55,735 nucleotides of DNA from assembly GCA_964582765.1 (NCBI GenBank), contig CAZOSW010000002.1, forward strand, positions 15,041 through 70,775, read 5' to 3'. Shown here piece after piece: positions 12,508 through 46,903 of this stretch. Source of the DNA: an uncultured Planctomycetales bacterium (GTDB taxonomy: Bacteria; Omnitrophota; Gorgyraeia; Gygaellales; Profunditerraquicolaceae). The notes below the pieces were generated by a model. It ran no database searches. It saw only the letters and a list, made by a program, of their open reading frames with translations, and was not told where the DNA came from. Position 1 is the stretch's first letter. Each line of letters opens with the position of its first letter. The translations under genes and the position numbers were made by a program.

Positions 12508-15189
12508 ATGCAAAACGAAAAACAAAAGAAAAAAATACTTACGGTTGAGGAACTGCGCAATATAGAGTTTCAACAAAAAGCTATATTAGATAATATCCCA
12601 GATATGGCCTGGCTTAAAGATAGCCAAAGCCGGTTTATTATGGTTAATGAGCGTTTTGGCTGCAGTTGCGGTTTCAAGCCTGAGGAGATTATTGGTAAGA
12701 CCGATTTAGATATTTGGCCAAAAGATTTAGCAGAAAGTTACCGCGCTGATGACCAAGAGGTAATGAAGAGTAAGAAGCGTAAATGCGTGGAAGAAAGATT
12801 GGCTGATAGCGAAGGCAAGATTCAATGGCTTGAAACTATTAAAACACCGGTTTTTGATGATCAAGGTAAAGTAATTGGTACTACCGGTATAGCCAGAGAT
12901 ATTACGCTGAGAAGGAAGGAAGAAGACAGGGTAAAAGATATTCGTGCGGAGCTTGAGCTGCGTGTTAAGGTTAGGACAGCGGAATTGACAAGCCTTAATG
13001 AAGAGCTGTGCAGAGAGATAAAAGAACGCTCAAAGATTGAAGAGGCTTTACGTTTTAGTGAAGAAAAATTCCGTACAGTAGCTGAATTTACCTATGATTG
13101 GGAATACTGGCAAGACACGGATAATCGAATGATATATGTATCCCCCTCATGTGAAAGGATCACAGGGTATAGTCGAAGCGATTTTATAAACGATCCCTCT
13201 TTAATAGAGAAAATAGTGCATTCTGACGATATCAGTTTGCTTCGTAAAGAAATTAAGAAGGCAATTCATGATTGCGCTAAATTGGAGTTAGATTTTCGAA
13301 TCATTGATAAAGCTGGCAAGTTGCATTGGATTAGCCATATATCTATTCCTGTTCATAATGCTGAAGGTAAGCTTACCGGCCGCAGGGCAAGTAACCGTGA
13401 TATTACCGAAAAAAGGGGATATGAATTTGAGTTACAAGGTTATCGAGATAAACTGGAATCCTTAGTTGAACAACGTACAAAATTATTGGAATCAGAAATT
13501 GAAATTAGGAGAGCTGCTGAATTAAGGGTAAATAATTTAAATAAACAGATTGAGTTTATTTTAGGTACAACTAAAACCGGTTTGGATATTATAGATAAAG
13601 ATTATAATATCCGCTACATTGATTCCGAATGGGCGCGTCAGTATGGAGAGTGGAAGGGAAAGAAATGTTTTGAGTATTTTATGGATCGTAAGAGCTGTTG
13701 CCCCGGATGCGCTATTGAGGAGGCGCTCAAGACAAGAAAGGTCGTAATTAGCCAAGAAGTCTTACTTAAAGAGGGTAATCGTCCGGTCCAGGTGACTACA
13801 ATACCTTTTCAGGATGAGAAAGGTGAGTGGTTAGTTGCTGAAATAAACGTTGATATAAGCCAGAAGAAAAAAATTGATGAAGAATTGCAGCGTTATCGGG
13901 ATCATCTGGAGCAGCTTGTGGCGGAGCGTACGCAAGAGCTCTTGCAGGAAACAGTGCGCTATAAAAATTCAGAATTAGAAAAAAGTAGGTTAAATAGTGA
14001 ACTGATTAAAATTAATGAAAAATTAAAGAGTGTTTCGCTGATTGATTCACATACAGGTTTATATAATTACCGTTATTTGCAGGAGGTCATTGAAGCTGAA
14101 TTCCATCAGGCACGAAGATATGCCCAGAATTTGGCAATAATTATGCTTGATATTGATTATTTTAAGTCCATAAATGATGTTTATGGAATTGCTTTTGGTG
14201 ATTTGGTTTTAAAGCAGTTTTCAAAACAACTTAAGCGCGTGGTGAGGCGTTATGATATCCTTATTCGTTATAGCGGAGAGGAATTTATAATTATATCTCC
14301 AAGATTAGACCGTAATGCAGCTTTTAATATGGCACAAAGGCTACTGGAATCTTTAAATTTTATTAATTTTGGAAATAAAAACCATACTGTTAAATTGAAA
14401 ATAAGCTTATCTGTAGTTTCTTTTCCCGGGGATAGGGCAAAAAACGGAATAGATCTAGTGAATCTGGCTAACAAAGTACTTAACAAGGTTAAGGAGAGCG
14501 GAGGTAATCGAGTCTACTCTGTGTTAGATACCAAGAGTTTTTTAAACAAAGGTATGGAAAAGTTTTCTAAGGCTGTAGGAGTCAAATCGTTAAAGAAAAC
14601 GATAGATAAACTGCACAGGCAGTCAAAGCAGGGTTTAACTGAATCAATTTTTGCGTTTGCTAAAACTTTGGAATTGAAAGATCACTATACCGGTGAGCAT
14701 GTTGAAAACACAGTACATTTTGCGACAGAAATTGCTAAGGGATTAAATCTGCCCAAAGAAGATATTGAATTAATTAAACAAGCGGCAATGCTGCATGATT
14801 TAGGTAAAATAGGCGTAAGTGAAAGTATTTTACTAAAAAAAGGTAAACTTAGCAAAAGGGAGTTTGAGGAAATTAAAAAGCATCCTCAGATTGGTGCGGA
14901 TATTATTAGGCCTATTCAGTTTTTGCATGGTTTAATCCCGTTTATCTTTTACCACCACGAACGCTGGGACGGTAAAGGATATCCTAGCGGAATAAAAGGA
15001 GAGGATATACCTCTTGGCGCTAGAGTGATTGCTATTGCTGACGTATATCAAGCCCTGATTAGTGACCGGCCATATCATAAGGCGTTTACTAAAGAAGAGG
15101 CAGCGGATATAATTAAAAAGGCTTCTGGAACTCAATTTGATCCTCGCATTGCAAGTATCTTCCTAAAGATTATCGATAAAAGAGATTAA
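12508..15189 (+). CDS. Multidomain c-di-GMP signalling protein: PAS/PAC repeats, coiled coils, GGDEF (SGEEF variant), HD-GYP
   Basis: 893 aa. PAS-like blocks (DITLRRK, NRDITEKR ends), an RRYD I-site 5 aa upstream of SGEEF, then HDLGKIGV and HHERWDGKGYPSG. Confidence 0.85.
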   Translation: MQNEKQKKKILTVEELRNIEFQQKAILDNIPDMAWLKDSQSRFIMVNERFGCSCGFKPEEIIGKTDLDIWPKDLAESYRADDQEVMKSKKRKCVEERLADSEGKIQWLETIKTPVFDDQGKVIGTTGIARDITLRRKEEDRVKDIRAELELRVKVRTAELTSLNEELCREIKERSKIEEALRFSEEKFRTVAEFTYDWEYWQDTDNRMIYVSPSCERITGYSRSDFINDPSLIEKIVHSDDISLLRKEIKKAIHDCAKLELDFRIIDKAGKLHWISHISIPVHNAEGKLTGRRASNRDITEKRGYEFELQGYRDKLESLVEQRTKLLESEIEIRRAAELRVNNLNKQIEFILGTTKTGLDIIDKDYNIRYIDSEWARQYGEWKGKKCFEYFMDRKSCCPGCAIEEALKTRKVVISQEVLLKEGNRPVQVTTIPFQDEKGEWLVAEINVDISQKKKIDEELQRYRDHLEQLVAERTQELLQETVRYKNSELEKSRLNSELIKINEKLKSVSLIDSHTGLYNYRYLQEVIEAEFHQARRYAQNLAIIMLDIDYFKSINDVYGIAFGDLVLKQFSKQLKRVVRRYDILIRYSGEEFIIISPRLDRNAAFNMAQRLLESLNFINFGNKNHTVKLKISLSVVSFPGDRAKNGIDLVNLANKVLNKVKESGGNRVYSVLDTKSFLNKGMEKFSKAVGVKSLKKTIDKLHRQSKQGLTESIFAFAKTLELKDHYTGEHVENTVHFATEIAKGLNLPKEDIELIKQAAMLHDLGKIGVSESILLKKGKLSKREFEEIKKHPQIGADIIRPIQFLHGLIPFIFYHHERWDGKGYPSGIKGEDIPLGARVIAIADVYQALISDRPYHKAFTKEEAADIIKKASGTQFDPRIASIFLKIIDKRD

Positions 15190-15342
15190 TCCCTGTGGTT
15201 AACCATTTTGGAAAATAATAGGTACGTTAAGATTTTGCCTCGTTACCTACGGCAACAGAAAAGATTTCTGCAGCTGTGGTGTTTGCTGGATCCTGTCTTC
15301 TAACAAGTTTTAAAATCTTCAAAGAAGATTTTAATGTACTCG

Positions 15343-15405
15343 ACAGGATTAATTCGGCCAACAACTTATGTCGCTTGCGCTCCATAAGCTGTGGCCTCAT
15401 TAAAT
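15343..15405. repeat. REP-like palindromic element, copy 1 (imperfect)
   Basis: Arms ggccaacaacttatg (15356-15370) and cataagctgtggcc (15383-15396) around the loop tcgcttgcgctc. Flanks match the reverse complement of the copy at 48483-48555. Confidence 0.7.
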
Positions 15406-15409
15406 TTAC

Positions 15410-15438
15410 TTGCCAAAAATCACTAAAAATAGTATTAT
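15410..15438 (+). promoter_or_regulatory. Candidate promoter for the tRNA pair
   Basis: TTGCCA (15410-15415), 17-nt spacer, TATTAT (15433-15438), about 15 nt before the tRNA 5' end. Confidence 0.45.
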
Positions 15439-15453
15439 ATTGTATTGTTTTTA

Positions 15454-15527
15454 GGGCCCATAGCTCAGTCGGTTAGAGCAGTTGACTCATAATCAATTGG
15501 TCCGGGGTTCGAGTCCCTGTGGGCCCA
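15454..15527 (+). tRNA. tRNA with CAT anticodon (elongator Met, or Ile2 if lysidinylated)
   Basis: 74-nt cloverleaf drawn by hand: acceptor GGGCCCA/TGGGCCC, anticodon loop CTCATAA, T-loop TTCGAGT. No encoded CCA. Anticodon arm resembles ileX-type tRNAs. Confidence 0.9.
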
Positions 15528-15646
15528 GTTGATAAATTAAAGGCTCATAGTTTTACGCCCGGACCAAAAGGGGTGTGGGGAAGTATTCCCCACGTATTTG
15601 GGGTAACAGCGAAGCGTTGGGGAGCGACGAGCTGGCGAGGAGCGAC

Positions 15647-15677
15647 AGGTCCGGGGTTGGAGTTCCTGTGGGGCCCA
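15647..15677 (+). repeat. Decayed copy of the 3' end (T-arm plus acceptor strand) of the tRNA at 15454
   Basis: aggtccggggttggagttcctgtggggccca versus the genuine tggtccggggttcgagtccctgtgggccca (15498-15527): three substitutions and one inserted g. Confidence 0.75.
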
Positions 15678-15694
15678 GTATTAATCAGGCTTTT

Positions 15695-15771
15695 GGGCGC
15701 ATAGCTCAGTTGGTTAGAGCGCTACATTCACATTGTAGAGGTCATAGGTCCGAGTCCTATTGCGCCCACCA
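15695..15771 (+). tRNA. tRNA-Val (CAC), CCA encoded
   Basis: Cloverleaf with acceptor GGGCGCA/TGCGCCC and anticodon loop TTCACAT. T-loop reads TCCGAGT, with C at position 55. CCA at 15769-15771. Confidence 0.9.
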
Positions 15772-15790
15772 ATTTCTTTAAGGAGATAGA

Positions 15791-16510
15791 TTGGCAATAA
15801 ATAATTTAAAAGCGCAATTAGATAGTTTAATAAAGCTGCAGGAAGTGGATAGCGAGATTTACGCCCTGGGAAACGAAAAGACAGCTAAACCTTTTGAGAT
15901 TAAGACAATTGAATCTTTTTTTGAAACTAAAAAACAAGATTTAGTTAACCTTGAGAACCAGTCATTGGAATTGAAAAAAAAGCGTAAAGAGAAGGAGCTT
16001 GAGCTTGCAAGTAACACCGAAGCTGTAAAGAAGCTGCAAGGCCAGCTCTATTCTTTAAAGACCAATAAAGAATTTCAAACTATGCAGCAGCAGATCGCAG
16101 ATACTAAAGCAGATGGATCGGTTATAGAGGAGAACATCCTGATTTCTTATGAAGAATCAGATAAAATTAAAGCGCAGATTGATCAGGAGAATTTAAAGTT
16201 AAAGGAAGAAGAAAAGATTTTTCTTGATAAAAAAAATAAGATCCATGAACGTATAAAAGAAATCGATAGCCGGTTAGTGGAATTAGAGGCTCAGAGAAAG
16301 CAAATAATCCCATGTATTGATCAAAAGATGTTGCTTGAGTATGAGAGAATCCTGCATAGCCGAGAAGGATTAGCAATTGTTACTATTAAGGACAACTCTT
16401 GCGGAGGTTGCCATATGTTATTGCCGCCTCAGGTAATAAATTTGATTAAGATGTATGAAAATATTATTACCTGTGAAGTATGTAACCGTATTCTTTTCCT
16501 CAAAGAATGA
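15791..16510 (+). CDS. Coiled-coil protein with C-terminal C4 zinc ribbon (COG1579-like)
   Basis: 239 aa. TTG start 5 nt after AGGAG, long heptad-rich region, then CGGCHM...CEVCNRIL. Confidence 0.7.
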   Translation: MAINNLKAQLDSLIKLQEVDSEIYALGNEKTAKPFEIKTIESFFETKKQDLVNLENQSLELKKKRKEKELELASNTEAVKKLQGQLYSLKTNKEFQTMQQQIADTKADGSVIEENILISYEESDKIKAQIDQENLKLKEEEKIFLDKKNKIHERIKEIDSRLVELEAQRKQIIPCIDQKMLLEYERILHSREGLAIVTIKDNSCGGCHMLLPPQVINLIKMYENIITCEVCNRILFLKE

Positions 16511-16968
16511 ATCATTTAGAAATTTATATCGATGGCGCCTCAAAAGGTAATCCAGGTAAAAGCGGAGTTGGTGTTGTAATTTATTGCGATAATCAGCTGA
16601 TTAAAAATATTTCAAGTTATATAGGCTTTACTACGAATAACGTAGCTGAATATACAGCTCTTATATATGCTCTTGAAGAAGCACTACTATTAAAAGCTAA
16701 TAGTTTAAAGATTAACACAGACAGTCAGCTTTTAGCTAGGCAACTTAATAAAATCTATAAAGTCAAGAATGAAGGTATAATAAATTTATATAATAGGGCA
16801 GTACATCTTTTATCGGGTTTCGAGAAAGTATTGGTCAATCATATTCCGCGGGAGAAAAATGCCTTAGCGGATAAATTAGCAACAGAGGCAATTAAAAAGC
16901 AGGCAGAATGTGGCTGCCCGCCACGATTAGTGGCGGGAGGAAAGTCCGGGCTCCAGAGGATAACGTAA
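16507..16968 (+). CDS. rnhA: Ribonuclease HI family protein; the last ~23 codons read into rnpB
   Basis: 153 aa with IYIDGASKGNPGKSGVGVV, NNVAEYTALIYALEEA and DSQLLARQLN in the order of the RNase H catalytic motif blocks. The homologous part appears to end near ...ATEAIKKQ. Confidence 0.8.
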   Translation: MNHLEIYIDGASKGNPGKSGVGVVIYCDNQLIKNISSYIGFTTNNVAEYTALIYALEEALLLKANSLKINTDSQLLARQLNKIYKVKNEGIINLYNRAVHLLSGFEKVLVNHIPREKNALADKLATEAIKKQAECGCPPRLVAGGKSGLQRIT

Positions 16969-17345
16969 CGGGTAACTCCCGTCTTTCGGCGTAAGCCGAA
17001 ACGGATTAGAGCCACAGAGACGAGTAACAGTCTTAGGTTGTGATGAGTAAGAGCTCAAGTCCCACTACCGTGGGTTTTGGGGTCATCTCGCAGCCTTTGG
17101 CTGTGAGATGAAACGAGGCAATCTCTGCGTGGAGCAAGGTAGAATAAGGGATGAGTGCTGATCCGGCACGATTCTTGCCAGTTATTAGGTATTCTGGCGG
17201 GATCCCGTTTTTTCGGGATGAATCCCGGGTAAACTGCTAAAGTTTTCGCGGTAACGCGAGAATTGAGAGGAATGGCCACTGAGATATGGTATTCGCCTGC
17301 CTGCCGGCAGGCAGGTATCAAAACAGAACCCGGCTTATTCTGCCT
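16901..17345 (+). ncRNA. rnpB: RNase P RNA, bacterial type A
   Basis: P1 aggcagaat/attctgcct, P3 cccgccac-gatta-gtggcggg, universal GGAGGAAAGTCCGGGCTCC and 3' ACAGAACCCGGCTTAT. Followed by a T-run. Confidence 0.9.
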
Positions 17346-17416
17346 GTTTTTTGATTTTATTTAAAATTTAGTTTTTTAAATTTAGAATTAATGTTTAATT
17401 AAGGAGGGGTAATCAA

Positions 17417-46430: not shown

Positions 46431-46586
46431 TGAGCATGCTCCCTGCCTGCCGGCAGTCAGGGAGCATGCGGGCCTGTCCCCTATGCCTGCGGCTTAGGGG
46501 TATTGCGCCGCAGAAGATAAAAATGTTGCGGCTTGATACCTAAACAAGCCGCGTGTACAAGTAATCGATAAAATCAAAATTGATTT

Positions 46587-46660: not shown

Positions 46661-46903
46661 CTTTAATTATACAAGAGTGGAACTTTCCACTTCGTGGTTT
46701 TCCCGCCTAAAGAACGGGCGGGATTTCGCTAGATGTCTGCCTTCGGCAGACGGTGGGTCCTCAAAAATCCACTCTCCGCCACTTTAATTATACAAGAGTG
46801 GAACTTTCCACTTCGTGGTTTTCCCGCCTAAAGAACGGGCGGGATTTCGCTAAATGTTTGCCTTCGGCAGACGGCGGGTCCTCAAAAATCCACTCTCCGC
46901 CAC
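46644..46903 (+). repeat. Two tandem 121-nt units plus a terminal 18-mer, each boundary being the tRNA 3' end
   Basis: aaatccactctccgccac occurs at 46644, 46765 and 46886. The intervening 103 nt differ at only 3 positions (46732/46853, 46737/46858, 46754/46875). Confidence 0.95.

Follow-up and report, generated by a model that had tools for sequence, protein, structure and literature searches.

The trailer that follows an elongator-type tRNA(CAU) gene at positions 15528 to 15694 of the window (the whole stretch of 55,735 nucleotides that was analysed) is most probably a copy of a conserved, non-coding, structured element of Omnitrophota that has lost one of its hairpins (P4). We place the probability of this reading, in which the element has a fixed layout, would be released as RNA and would spread by recombination, at about 0.8. 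Judged by comparison with its relatives, the window copy is a truncated member of an Omnitrophota family of trailers, each of which lies at the end of a stable-RNA gene and carries a second copy of that gene end.

Layout of the trailer behind tRNA(CAU)

The trailer and its surroundings present the following features, where T denotes the 3' part of the host tRNA and T' its inverted copy.

15410 to 15438, + strand: promoter-like site TTGCCA-17-TATTAT upstream of tRNA(CAU), from a consensus scan
15454 to 15527, + strand: host gene tRNA(CAU), elongator type (ARAGORN; Rfam tRNA, 73.5 bits)
15499 to 15527, + strand: proximal copy T, the 3' part of tRNA(CAU) with variable loop, T arm, acceptor 3' strand and discriminator
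15528 to 15557, + strand: spacer, whose 3' half aggctcatagttttacg (15541 to 15557) represents the outer portion of the inverted copy T', now diverged
15558 to 15565, + strand: inner T' cccggacc, the 5' strand of the closing helix P1, complementary to 15648 to 15655
15566 to 15573, + strand: junction J1/2 aaaagggg, near-invariant family-wide (invariant columns of alignment A1)
15574 to 15594, + strand: P2 hairpin gtggggaa-gta-ttccccac plus a closing U.G pair
15595 to 15608, + strand: junction J2/3 tatttggggtaaca, near-invariant, with consensus YWTTYGGGGTRACA (alignments A1 and A2)
15609 to 15615, + strand: P3, reduced to a GCGAAGC mini-hairpin; longer hairpins stand at the same place in other copies
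15616 to 15617, + strand: position of the P4 hairpin (CCATAGGGGCAGAGCCCCT, 19 nt), which this genome has lost by deletion relative to the orthologue L002
15621 to 15646, + strand: P5 region GGAGCGAC-gagctggcgag-GAGCGAC, a G.A-rich hairpin between the copies of a direct repeat
15648 to 15677, + strand: distal copy T of the tRNA 3' end, its first 8 nt being the 3' strand of P1
15678 to 15694, + strand: probable native spacer between tRNA(CAU) and tRNA(Val), gtatt..., which begins like the element-free spacers of L019 and L020 (gtatg, gtata)
15695 to 15771, + strand: tRNA-Val(CAC), CCA encoded (ARAGORN, Rfam)

The window therefore presents the order T (15499 to 15527), spacer (15528 to 15557), T' (15558 to 15565), core (15566 to 15646) and T (15648 to 15677). 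The coordinates that the sequence-only reading had assigned to the tRNAs, the repeat, the helix and the hairpin hold. Its pairing of cccggacc with ggtccggg (15648 to 15655), its 8-bp hairpin at 15575 to 15593 and its direct repeat of ggagcgac (15621 to 15628 and 15639 to 15646) are all present. It had described the distal repeat as carrying three substitutions and one inserted g; the insertion is there, but the substitutions number only two, the third being the base that precedes the repeat. Positions 15648 to 15677 are identical to 15499 to 15527 at 27 of 29 bases, and the changes comprise C56 to G, one further substitution and the G inserted in the acceptor strand. The C56-to-G change is old, because it is common to the orthologues L002 and L009.

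The resemblance does not reflect a T-arm consensus matched by chance, since the copy scores 23 against the end of its own tRNA and at most 14 against any other. A blastn-short search of the 1.33-Mb assembly with the 29-mer retrieved one match besides the tRNA itself, namely the distal copy (E value of 0.001), and the next-best matches are words of only 11 to 13 nt. The GC content of the 167-nt trailer reaches 0.60 to 0.63, versus approximately 0.35 around it. The fold energy of the trailer is unremarkable taken alone (z of −1.8), and the evidence for an element comes from its relatives.

The minimum free energy (MFE) fold pairs the 3' half of the spacer (15541 to 15557) with 15656 to 15675. 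At other loci (L032, L065, L084 and L044) the T' arms are longer or perfect, and T' is there a near-full-length inverted T. The inner arm varies with the host gene among the relatives, being CCCGACCC for Thr and CCTGACCC for Ala, and it is GAGAACC or TCGAACC where the host sequence was copied from the T loop.

A scan of 15150 to 16000 found no terminator-like site, including before tRNA-Val. Together with the promoter-like site upstream, this makes it plausible, from sequence features, that tRNA(CAU), trailer and tRNA-Val form one transcript. The tRNA-Val(CAC) gene is the sole CCA-encoding gene among the 23 tRNA genes detected in the assembly. In the related loci, CCA is encoded by 27 of 124 distinct tRNA genes (22%), with tRNA-Val(CAC) as top contributor (7 of 16). 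Further along the window (16899 to 17351) lies a class A bacterial RNase P RNA of 453 nt, which, against a model of 367 positions, implies sizeable insertions.

A folded core at many stable-RNA gene ends

Of 61 related genomes, 60 contain the core stretch (approximately 15558 to 15616 of the window), often in several copies. The fetched loci place it directly behind many different tRNAs, each time ending in a copy of the 3' end of the host tRNA. A core pattern matched 78 loci among 185,579 species genomes, nearly all of them labelled Candidatus Omnitrophota or PVC/Planctomycetes MAGs. A covariance model of the core built in this analysis (R1), composed of P2, the closing pairs of P3, P4 and the junctions, had matches in 51 of the 301 genomes sampled from the phylum, at 1 to 11 copies apiece, all of these genomes being in the class of the window genome. 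The idea that the arrangement marks a recurring process or element, and not a one-off, is borne out by the presence of the core at many stable-RNA gene ends across this one class. At gathering and at relaxed thresholds, no Rfam 15 family matched the trailer or the full-length copies, and a literature search found nothing on Omnitrophota trailers.

The consensus of the family runs P1, AAAGGGG (J1/2), P2, YWTTYGGGGTRACA, P3, P4, GGA and P5 and closes with the repeated end of the host gene. P3 has the consensus GCGA...GAGC with G.A pairs, P4 is CCAKAGGGG-CAGAG-CCCCTWTGG, and P5 is GCGA...GAGCGA; the GAGCGA...GAGCGAC frame of P5 is conserved in the family, and the same motif occurs in unit 1 of the E. 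coli rtT repeats. Across 93 distinct copies, all nine pairs of P2 show compensatory changes (for example, UA in 60 copies and CG in 27, or AU in 50 and GC in 25). The closing pair of P3 (CG in 72, UA in 14) and the outer pair of P4 (CG in 78, UA in 11) also covary. Paired cells amount to 94.7%, versus 48 to 66% with the partners slid, and double changes occur in 16 of 20 pairs, a number reached by 0 of 500 shuffles. The alignment was fitted to the model, so that the counts lean towards structure, and the slid and shuffled controls are the safeguard. Since G.U pairs are frequent on the strand shown, it is this strand that folds, as RNA or as single-stranded DNA. The helices P2, P3 and P4 of the core are supported by covariation and correspond to no Rfam 15 family.

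The order T, spacer, T', core and direct T is present in approximately 75 of some 90 distinct copies. The partner of T' is always the opening bases of the distal T, whether that copy starts in the variable loop of the tRNA (as in the window), at the T stem or inside the T loop. Stems of at least 7 bp are formed by 57% of arms within elements versus 24% of arms across elements, a control that separates only modestly because the T-loop sequence is common to all tRNAs. Differences between the proximal and distal copies cluster at T-loop positions 56 to 59, with 12 events, and the 3' strands of T stem and acceptor hold 5 differences in 455 cells. In many copies, the distal T is split by a small hairpin at these same positions. 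Many T' arms, in Omnitrophota and in E. coli, carry a conserved tandem G.A mismatch opposite the centre of the T loop.

The hosts of the family include at least 20 tRNA species, tmRNA, tRNAs with group I introns and 5S rRNA. The tRNA-associated copies (approximately 65) all lie downstream on the same strand, and antisense-upstream placement at tRNAs occurs in 0 of 95 copies examined. At 5S rRNA, sense copies are found downstream of the gene (L063, L107), and antisense copies that duplicate its 5' end are found upstream (L078, L063), with the same layout on the other strand. In L063 (2950 to 3520), one 5S gene is flanked on both sides, by an upstream antisense element with a copy of the 5' end and a downstream sense element with a copy of the 3' end; the spacer between 23S and 5S holds the antisense copy of L078. 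Element sizes are tightly grouped, at approximately 110 to 190 bp. Group I introns (Rfam RF00028, 65 to 103 bits) are common in these loci (L012:2197-2487, and also L032, L048, L050, L064, L065 and L095), several of them just upstream of the trailer element and apparently inside a tRNA gene missed by ARAGORN.

An inventory of tRNA genes that have their own 3' end repeated behind them returned, in the window genome, 3 of the 23 genes detected by ARAGORN plus a tRNA-Arg(ACG) gene cut by the start of contig C61. Four tRNAs thus have the layout, namely the two CAU tRNAs, Arg-ACG (C61) and Arg-TCT (C15). The earlier view of the arrangement as a feature of CAU tRNAs falls, since Arg-ACG and Arg-TCT carry it as well. 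The parallel that had been drawn with the locus at 46.6 kb stands for the architecture, with a T' agagtgga (46674 to 46681) that pairs with tccactct (46768 to 46775), but not for the core sequence, which differs. Model R1 finds two copies only in the genome, none of them at 46.6 kb; the second is full-length and lies behind tRNA-Arg(ACG) (C61:71-200, 113 bits). Two other trailers in the genome, the 46.6-kb tandem units and that of tRNA-Arg(TCT) on C15, combine the same layout with unrelated inner modules. The latter (genome G000, C15:19990-20221) is composed of a ccgggcc inverted arm, a hairpin-rich module of approximately 60 nt and the tRNA-end copy ttcggcccaggcgca; in the related genome G023, tRNA-Arg(TCT) carries a copy of the R1-type element family instead. 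A short palindrome, CCTGCCGGCAGG, recurs in the window (46436 to 46466) and in L044, L067, L116 and L125; the L044 palindrome sits within the T loop of a distal copy of a tRNA end, resembling a REP-type mini-insertion.

R1 matches the window copy at 15557 to 15655 (C2:30597-30695) with 67.2 bits (E value of 1.2e-15), versus 95 to 130 bits for full copies. P4, which is kept in L002 and in nearly all other copies, was lost by one deletion of 19 nt, as alignment with the orthologue in G023 shows. The tRNA(CAU) genes of G000 and G023 are identical at 74 of 74 positions, and the trailers are 89% identical at aligned sites outside the P4 deletion; tRNA-Val reaches 84%, the intergenic region upstream 73% and the gene downstream 77%. 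The excess of the trailer over its flanks (89% versus 73 to 77%) indicates that the window copy is still constrained and is no freely decaying scar. The word "decayed" in the sequence-only reading therefore fits the one deleted hairpin but not the remainder, which is more conserved than the flanks. With its P4 hairpin gone and an insertion in its spare tRNA end, the window copy may be inactive.

Evidence for movement and alternative explanations

Within one genus, the spacer between tRNA(CAU) and tRNA(Val) occurs in four states: with a full element (L002, L003), with the P4-less copy of the window, with a remnant lacking P2 to P4 (L009) and empty (L019, L020). These states include a deletion series, in which L001 is without P4 and L009 without P2 to P4. 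Tandem arrays are found at L010, L021, L044 and L098, and the same P3 variants recur at different host tRNAs. Genome G042 has a classical MITE of approximately 190 bp whose body is the core, with terminal inverted repeats (TIRs) TGCWCCGTTAA, a target duplication CTAN and at least 15 copies (L111 to L127); deletion derivatives of this MITE and one copy with a different cargo were also observed. Family-constant TIRs and a target-site duplication of 2 to 10 bp occur only in the G042 variant; the window copy, with its host-derived arms and its repeat of 29 to 31 bp, was rejected as a MITE.

Behind the distal copy, the flank is similar to the spacer found at empty sites. At L013, the distal copy and its flank match the element-free tRNA-Thr end and flank of the window, and the proximal spacer is one shared among elements of other genomes. 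This pattern fits an insertion by recombination within T that would have left the native gene end behind the core. It is ambiguous as proof that the element brings its own tRNA end, since the distal copy may instead be the fossil of an ancestral tRNA. To judge from the sequences of empty and occupied sites, tandem arrays, the deletion series and the MITE-borne form, the family is mobile on an evolutionary time scale. The analysis establishes membership in the family, a folded core, a fixed layout and a patchy distribution with rearrangement.

For the function and the insertion mechanism of the family, we infer the following from sequence comparison. The element would be transcribed by read-through within the tRNA(CAU)-tRNA(Val) precursor, starting at the promoter-like site (15410 to 15438). 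Processing of the tRNA 3' end and cleavage by RNase P would release an RNA of approximately 160 nt, bounded by the RNase P site at the 5' end of tRNA-Val. By analogy with E. coli RttR, the T':T helix would close this RNA and shield the real tRNA from mispairing with the spare end. New copies would arise by recombination within T, between the gene end carried by the element and the gene in the chromosome, which would stay intact while its displaced native end came to lie behind the core. It counts against this proposal that T and T' must be re-made for each new host gene, and no helper recombinase was identified for the trailer family. Because the core also lies antisense at 5S 5' ends, once in a 23S-5S spacer, co-transcription cannot explain every copy.

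It is possible, though unlikely, that the trailers are instead host-serving spacer RNAs of tRNA operons (processing platforms, insulators or regulatory RNAs like RttR), inherited vertically, sometimes lost and not mobile, in which the spare end only closes the fold and sets the 3' end. Such a role would account for the uniform downstream, same-strand placement of the tRNA copies (all of approximately 65), for junction bases that are near-invariant across the class, for an orthologous trailer more conserved than its flanks and for RttR being a discrete RNA with the same ends. It does not account for the same core and the same P3 variants at more than 20 host genes with the arms re-made to match each, for the antisense copies at 5S 5' ends, or for the MITE-borne version with its TIRs and CTAN target duplication. 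Presence and absence within one genus and the tandem arrays argue against it in the same way.

We consider it rather improbable that the family is a miniature integrative element whose active form would be a small circle, possibly single-stranded, with a T':T stem that mimics the duplex target and a core that serves a DNA life cycle, any RNA being a by-product. A circle of the order a, T', loop, T, b, exchanged on one strand within T, would yield chromosome, T, b...a, T', loop, T, chromosome, which is the order observed. The orientation at 5S, which follows the gene end and not the direction of transcription, is in keeping with such a circle, as are the tandem arrays, the conserved tandem G.A mismatch of many T' arms, the concentration of proximal/distal differences in the T loop and the GCGAAGC-type mini-hairpins. 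A preprint, which we take as a lead and not as evidence, reports exonuclease-resistant "mobilome" coverage over tyrT-rttR that is raised under stress (10.1101/2024.07.17.603846). Against a circle, no such molecule, recombinase or replication function was identified, and the targets differ so widely between hosts that a sequence-specific recombinase would not accept them. Nothing similar was found in viral contigs, where a scan with two core patterns gave no matches, and a circle would give no reason to expect the strong same-strand bias at tRNAs.

Integration classically leaves direct repeats of a tRNA 3' end as its footprint. An attL/attR scar, produced when a large island or prophage entered the 3' end of the tRNA gene and was later deleted to approximately 120 bp, would explain these repeats as well as a distal copy and flank that look native. 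This origin is very improbable, however, as the same conserved, covarying core stands between the repeats at dozens of unrelated genes and genomes. The roughly 120 bp are non-coding, with no integrase remnant or variable cargo and with frames overlapping the tRNAs as the only ORFs, and the sizes of the elements are tightly distributed. A decayed tandem tRNA duplicate, suggested by the likeness of the spacer ggctcatag to the tRNA 5' end gggcccatag, or a chance T-arm match is hardly credible given the family evidence: the 5'-like segment is T', the complement of the acceptor 3' strand, 15528 to 15694 holds no D or anticodon arm and no tRNA-model match, and the copy is far nearer to its own tRNA than to any other. 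The reading as a second tRNA copy was rejected on the first of these grounds.

An origin by reverse transcription was also considered. The ends of the repeats fall on RNA termini, which is suggestive of such a route, yet reverse transcriptase genes do not co-occur with the element: PF00078 is found in 4 of 25 element-positive versus 6 of 20 element-negative genomes, and this origin is not supported. Some solitary copies with a hairpin-interrupted T loop (L018, L049, L088, L096 and L065) carry on the distal copy a CCA that is absent from the proximal gene, a sign that is ambiguous because 22% of the tRNA genes in these loci encode CCA; the window copy has no such extra CCA on its distal end. 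Genome G000 holds two PF00078 matches (C37:7567-8157 and C77:2966-3235).

Comparison with known systems

By sequence comparison, the Omnitrophota trailers are rtT-like elements, whose relation to E. coli rtT is one of design and short motifs. To our knowledge, the rtT repeats of E. coli have been without explanation since the 1970s and are known only at tRNA-Tyr in enterobacteria. Like the Omnitrophota trailers, the rtT/RttR units of E. coli tyrT-tyrV (RF00391) follow a tRNA gene directly and on its strand. The 3' end of the tRNA is repeated at the end of every unit, the fold is closed by an inverted copy of the T arm upstream, and tandem arrays occur in both systems. As annotated, rttR begins 7 nt after tyrV, ends on the last base of the T copy and folds into a structure closed by T':T. 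The E. coli T' is GGGGAAGGATGAGAAGCTTCGA, a reverse-complemented T arm in which GAG stands in place of TCG at the loop centre, which gives tandem G.A pairs. This GAG variant is common to both systems, as GGATGAGAAGC in E. coli and as GGAYGAGAACC in many Omnitrophota copies. Unit 1 of rtT shares CGAGCGAAAGCGAG and the 17-mer GAGGAGCGAAGCGACGA with Omnitrophota copies (motifs of 14 and 17 nt), and a shared 15-mer between this unit and Omnitrophota is reached by 8 of 2,000 shuffles. In the tyrT-tyrV spacer of E. coli K-12 (L128, 1287066 to 1287622), unit 1 keeps GAGGAGCGAAGCGACGA, and units 2 to 4 have diverged there.

The Rfam RtT model (gathering threshold of 45 bits) found no match in the window (E values up to 10), in the loci of eight relatives or in 41 related genomes, and it detected E. 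coli as a positive control; the trailers therefore do not belong to RF00391. The E. coli units are without P2 and the GGGG junctions and place their module within the distal copy, in its T loop, and the Omnitrophota family differs further in using more than 20 host genes.

With integrative elements that target tRNAs and with CIMEs, the trailers share a direct repeat of the 3' end that brackets the insert, an intact gene, a native end displaced distally and tandem accretion. They differ in their size (approximately 110 to 190 bp), in having no integrase, in their conserved structured content and extra T', and in the use of 5S rRNA 5' and 3' ends. The attP(+) site of CTXphi (IMEX) and the attC sites of integrons offer an analogy in their stem of inverted arms around a loop, in a one-strand exchange that would predict the layout and in conserved stem mismatches. 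The analogy would end where the stems of the trailers copy many different targets and no recombinase, circle or phage is linked to them. Small RNAs from tRNA 3' external transcribed spacers, such as 3'ETS-leuZ of E. coli, are released from a tRNA precursor by tRNA processing enzymes, as the Omnitrophota element would be. We know of no tRNA-end copy, conserved multi-helix core or multi-locus family among them.

A wider reading takes the modules described here and E. coli rtT as one widespread, unrecognised class of protein-less mobile elements that would home to the ends of stable-RNA genes. Each would have a target-derived stem with the core as its loop, and the folded hairpin, re-programmed for each tRNA or 5S gene, would act as a recombination substrate or guide; we offer this tentatively and think it unlikely. 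For annotation, tRNA-end repeats of the rtT-like kind should not be called attachment scars of islands or prophages. The rtT design now appears as a large and diverse family with a covariation-supported core, dozens of host genes, occupied and empty sites and a MITE-borne form, which provides comparative material on two questions: whether trailers of this type are functional RNAs set free by tRNA processing, and whether they represent a new route by which tiny non-coding DNA spreads while sparing essential genes.
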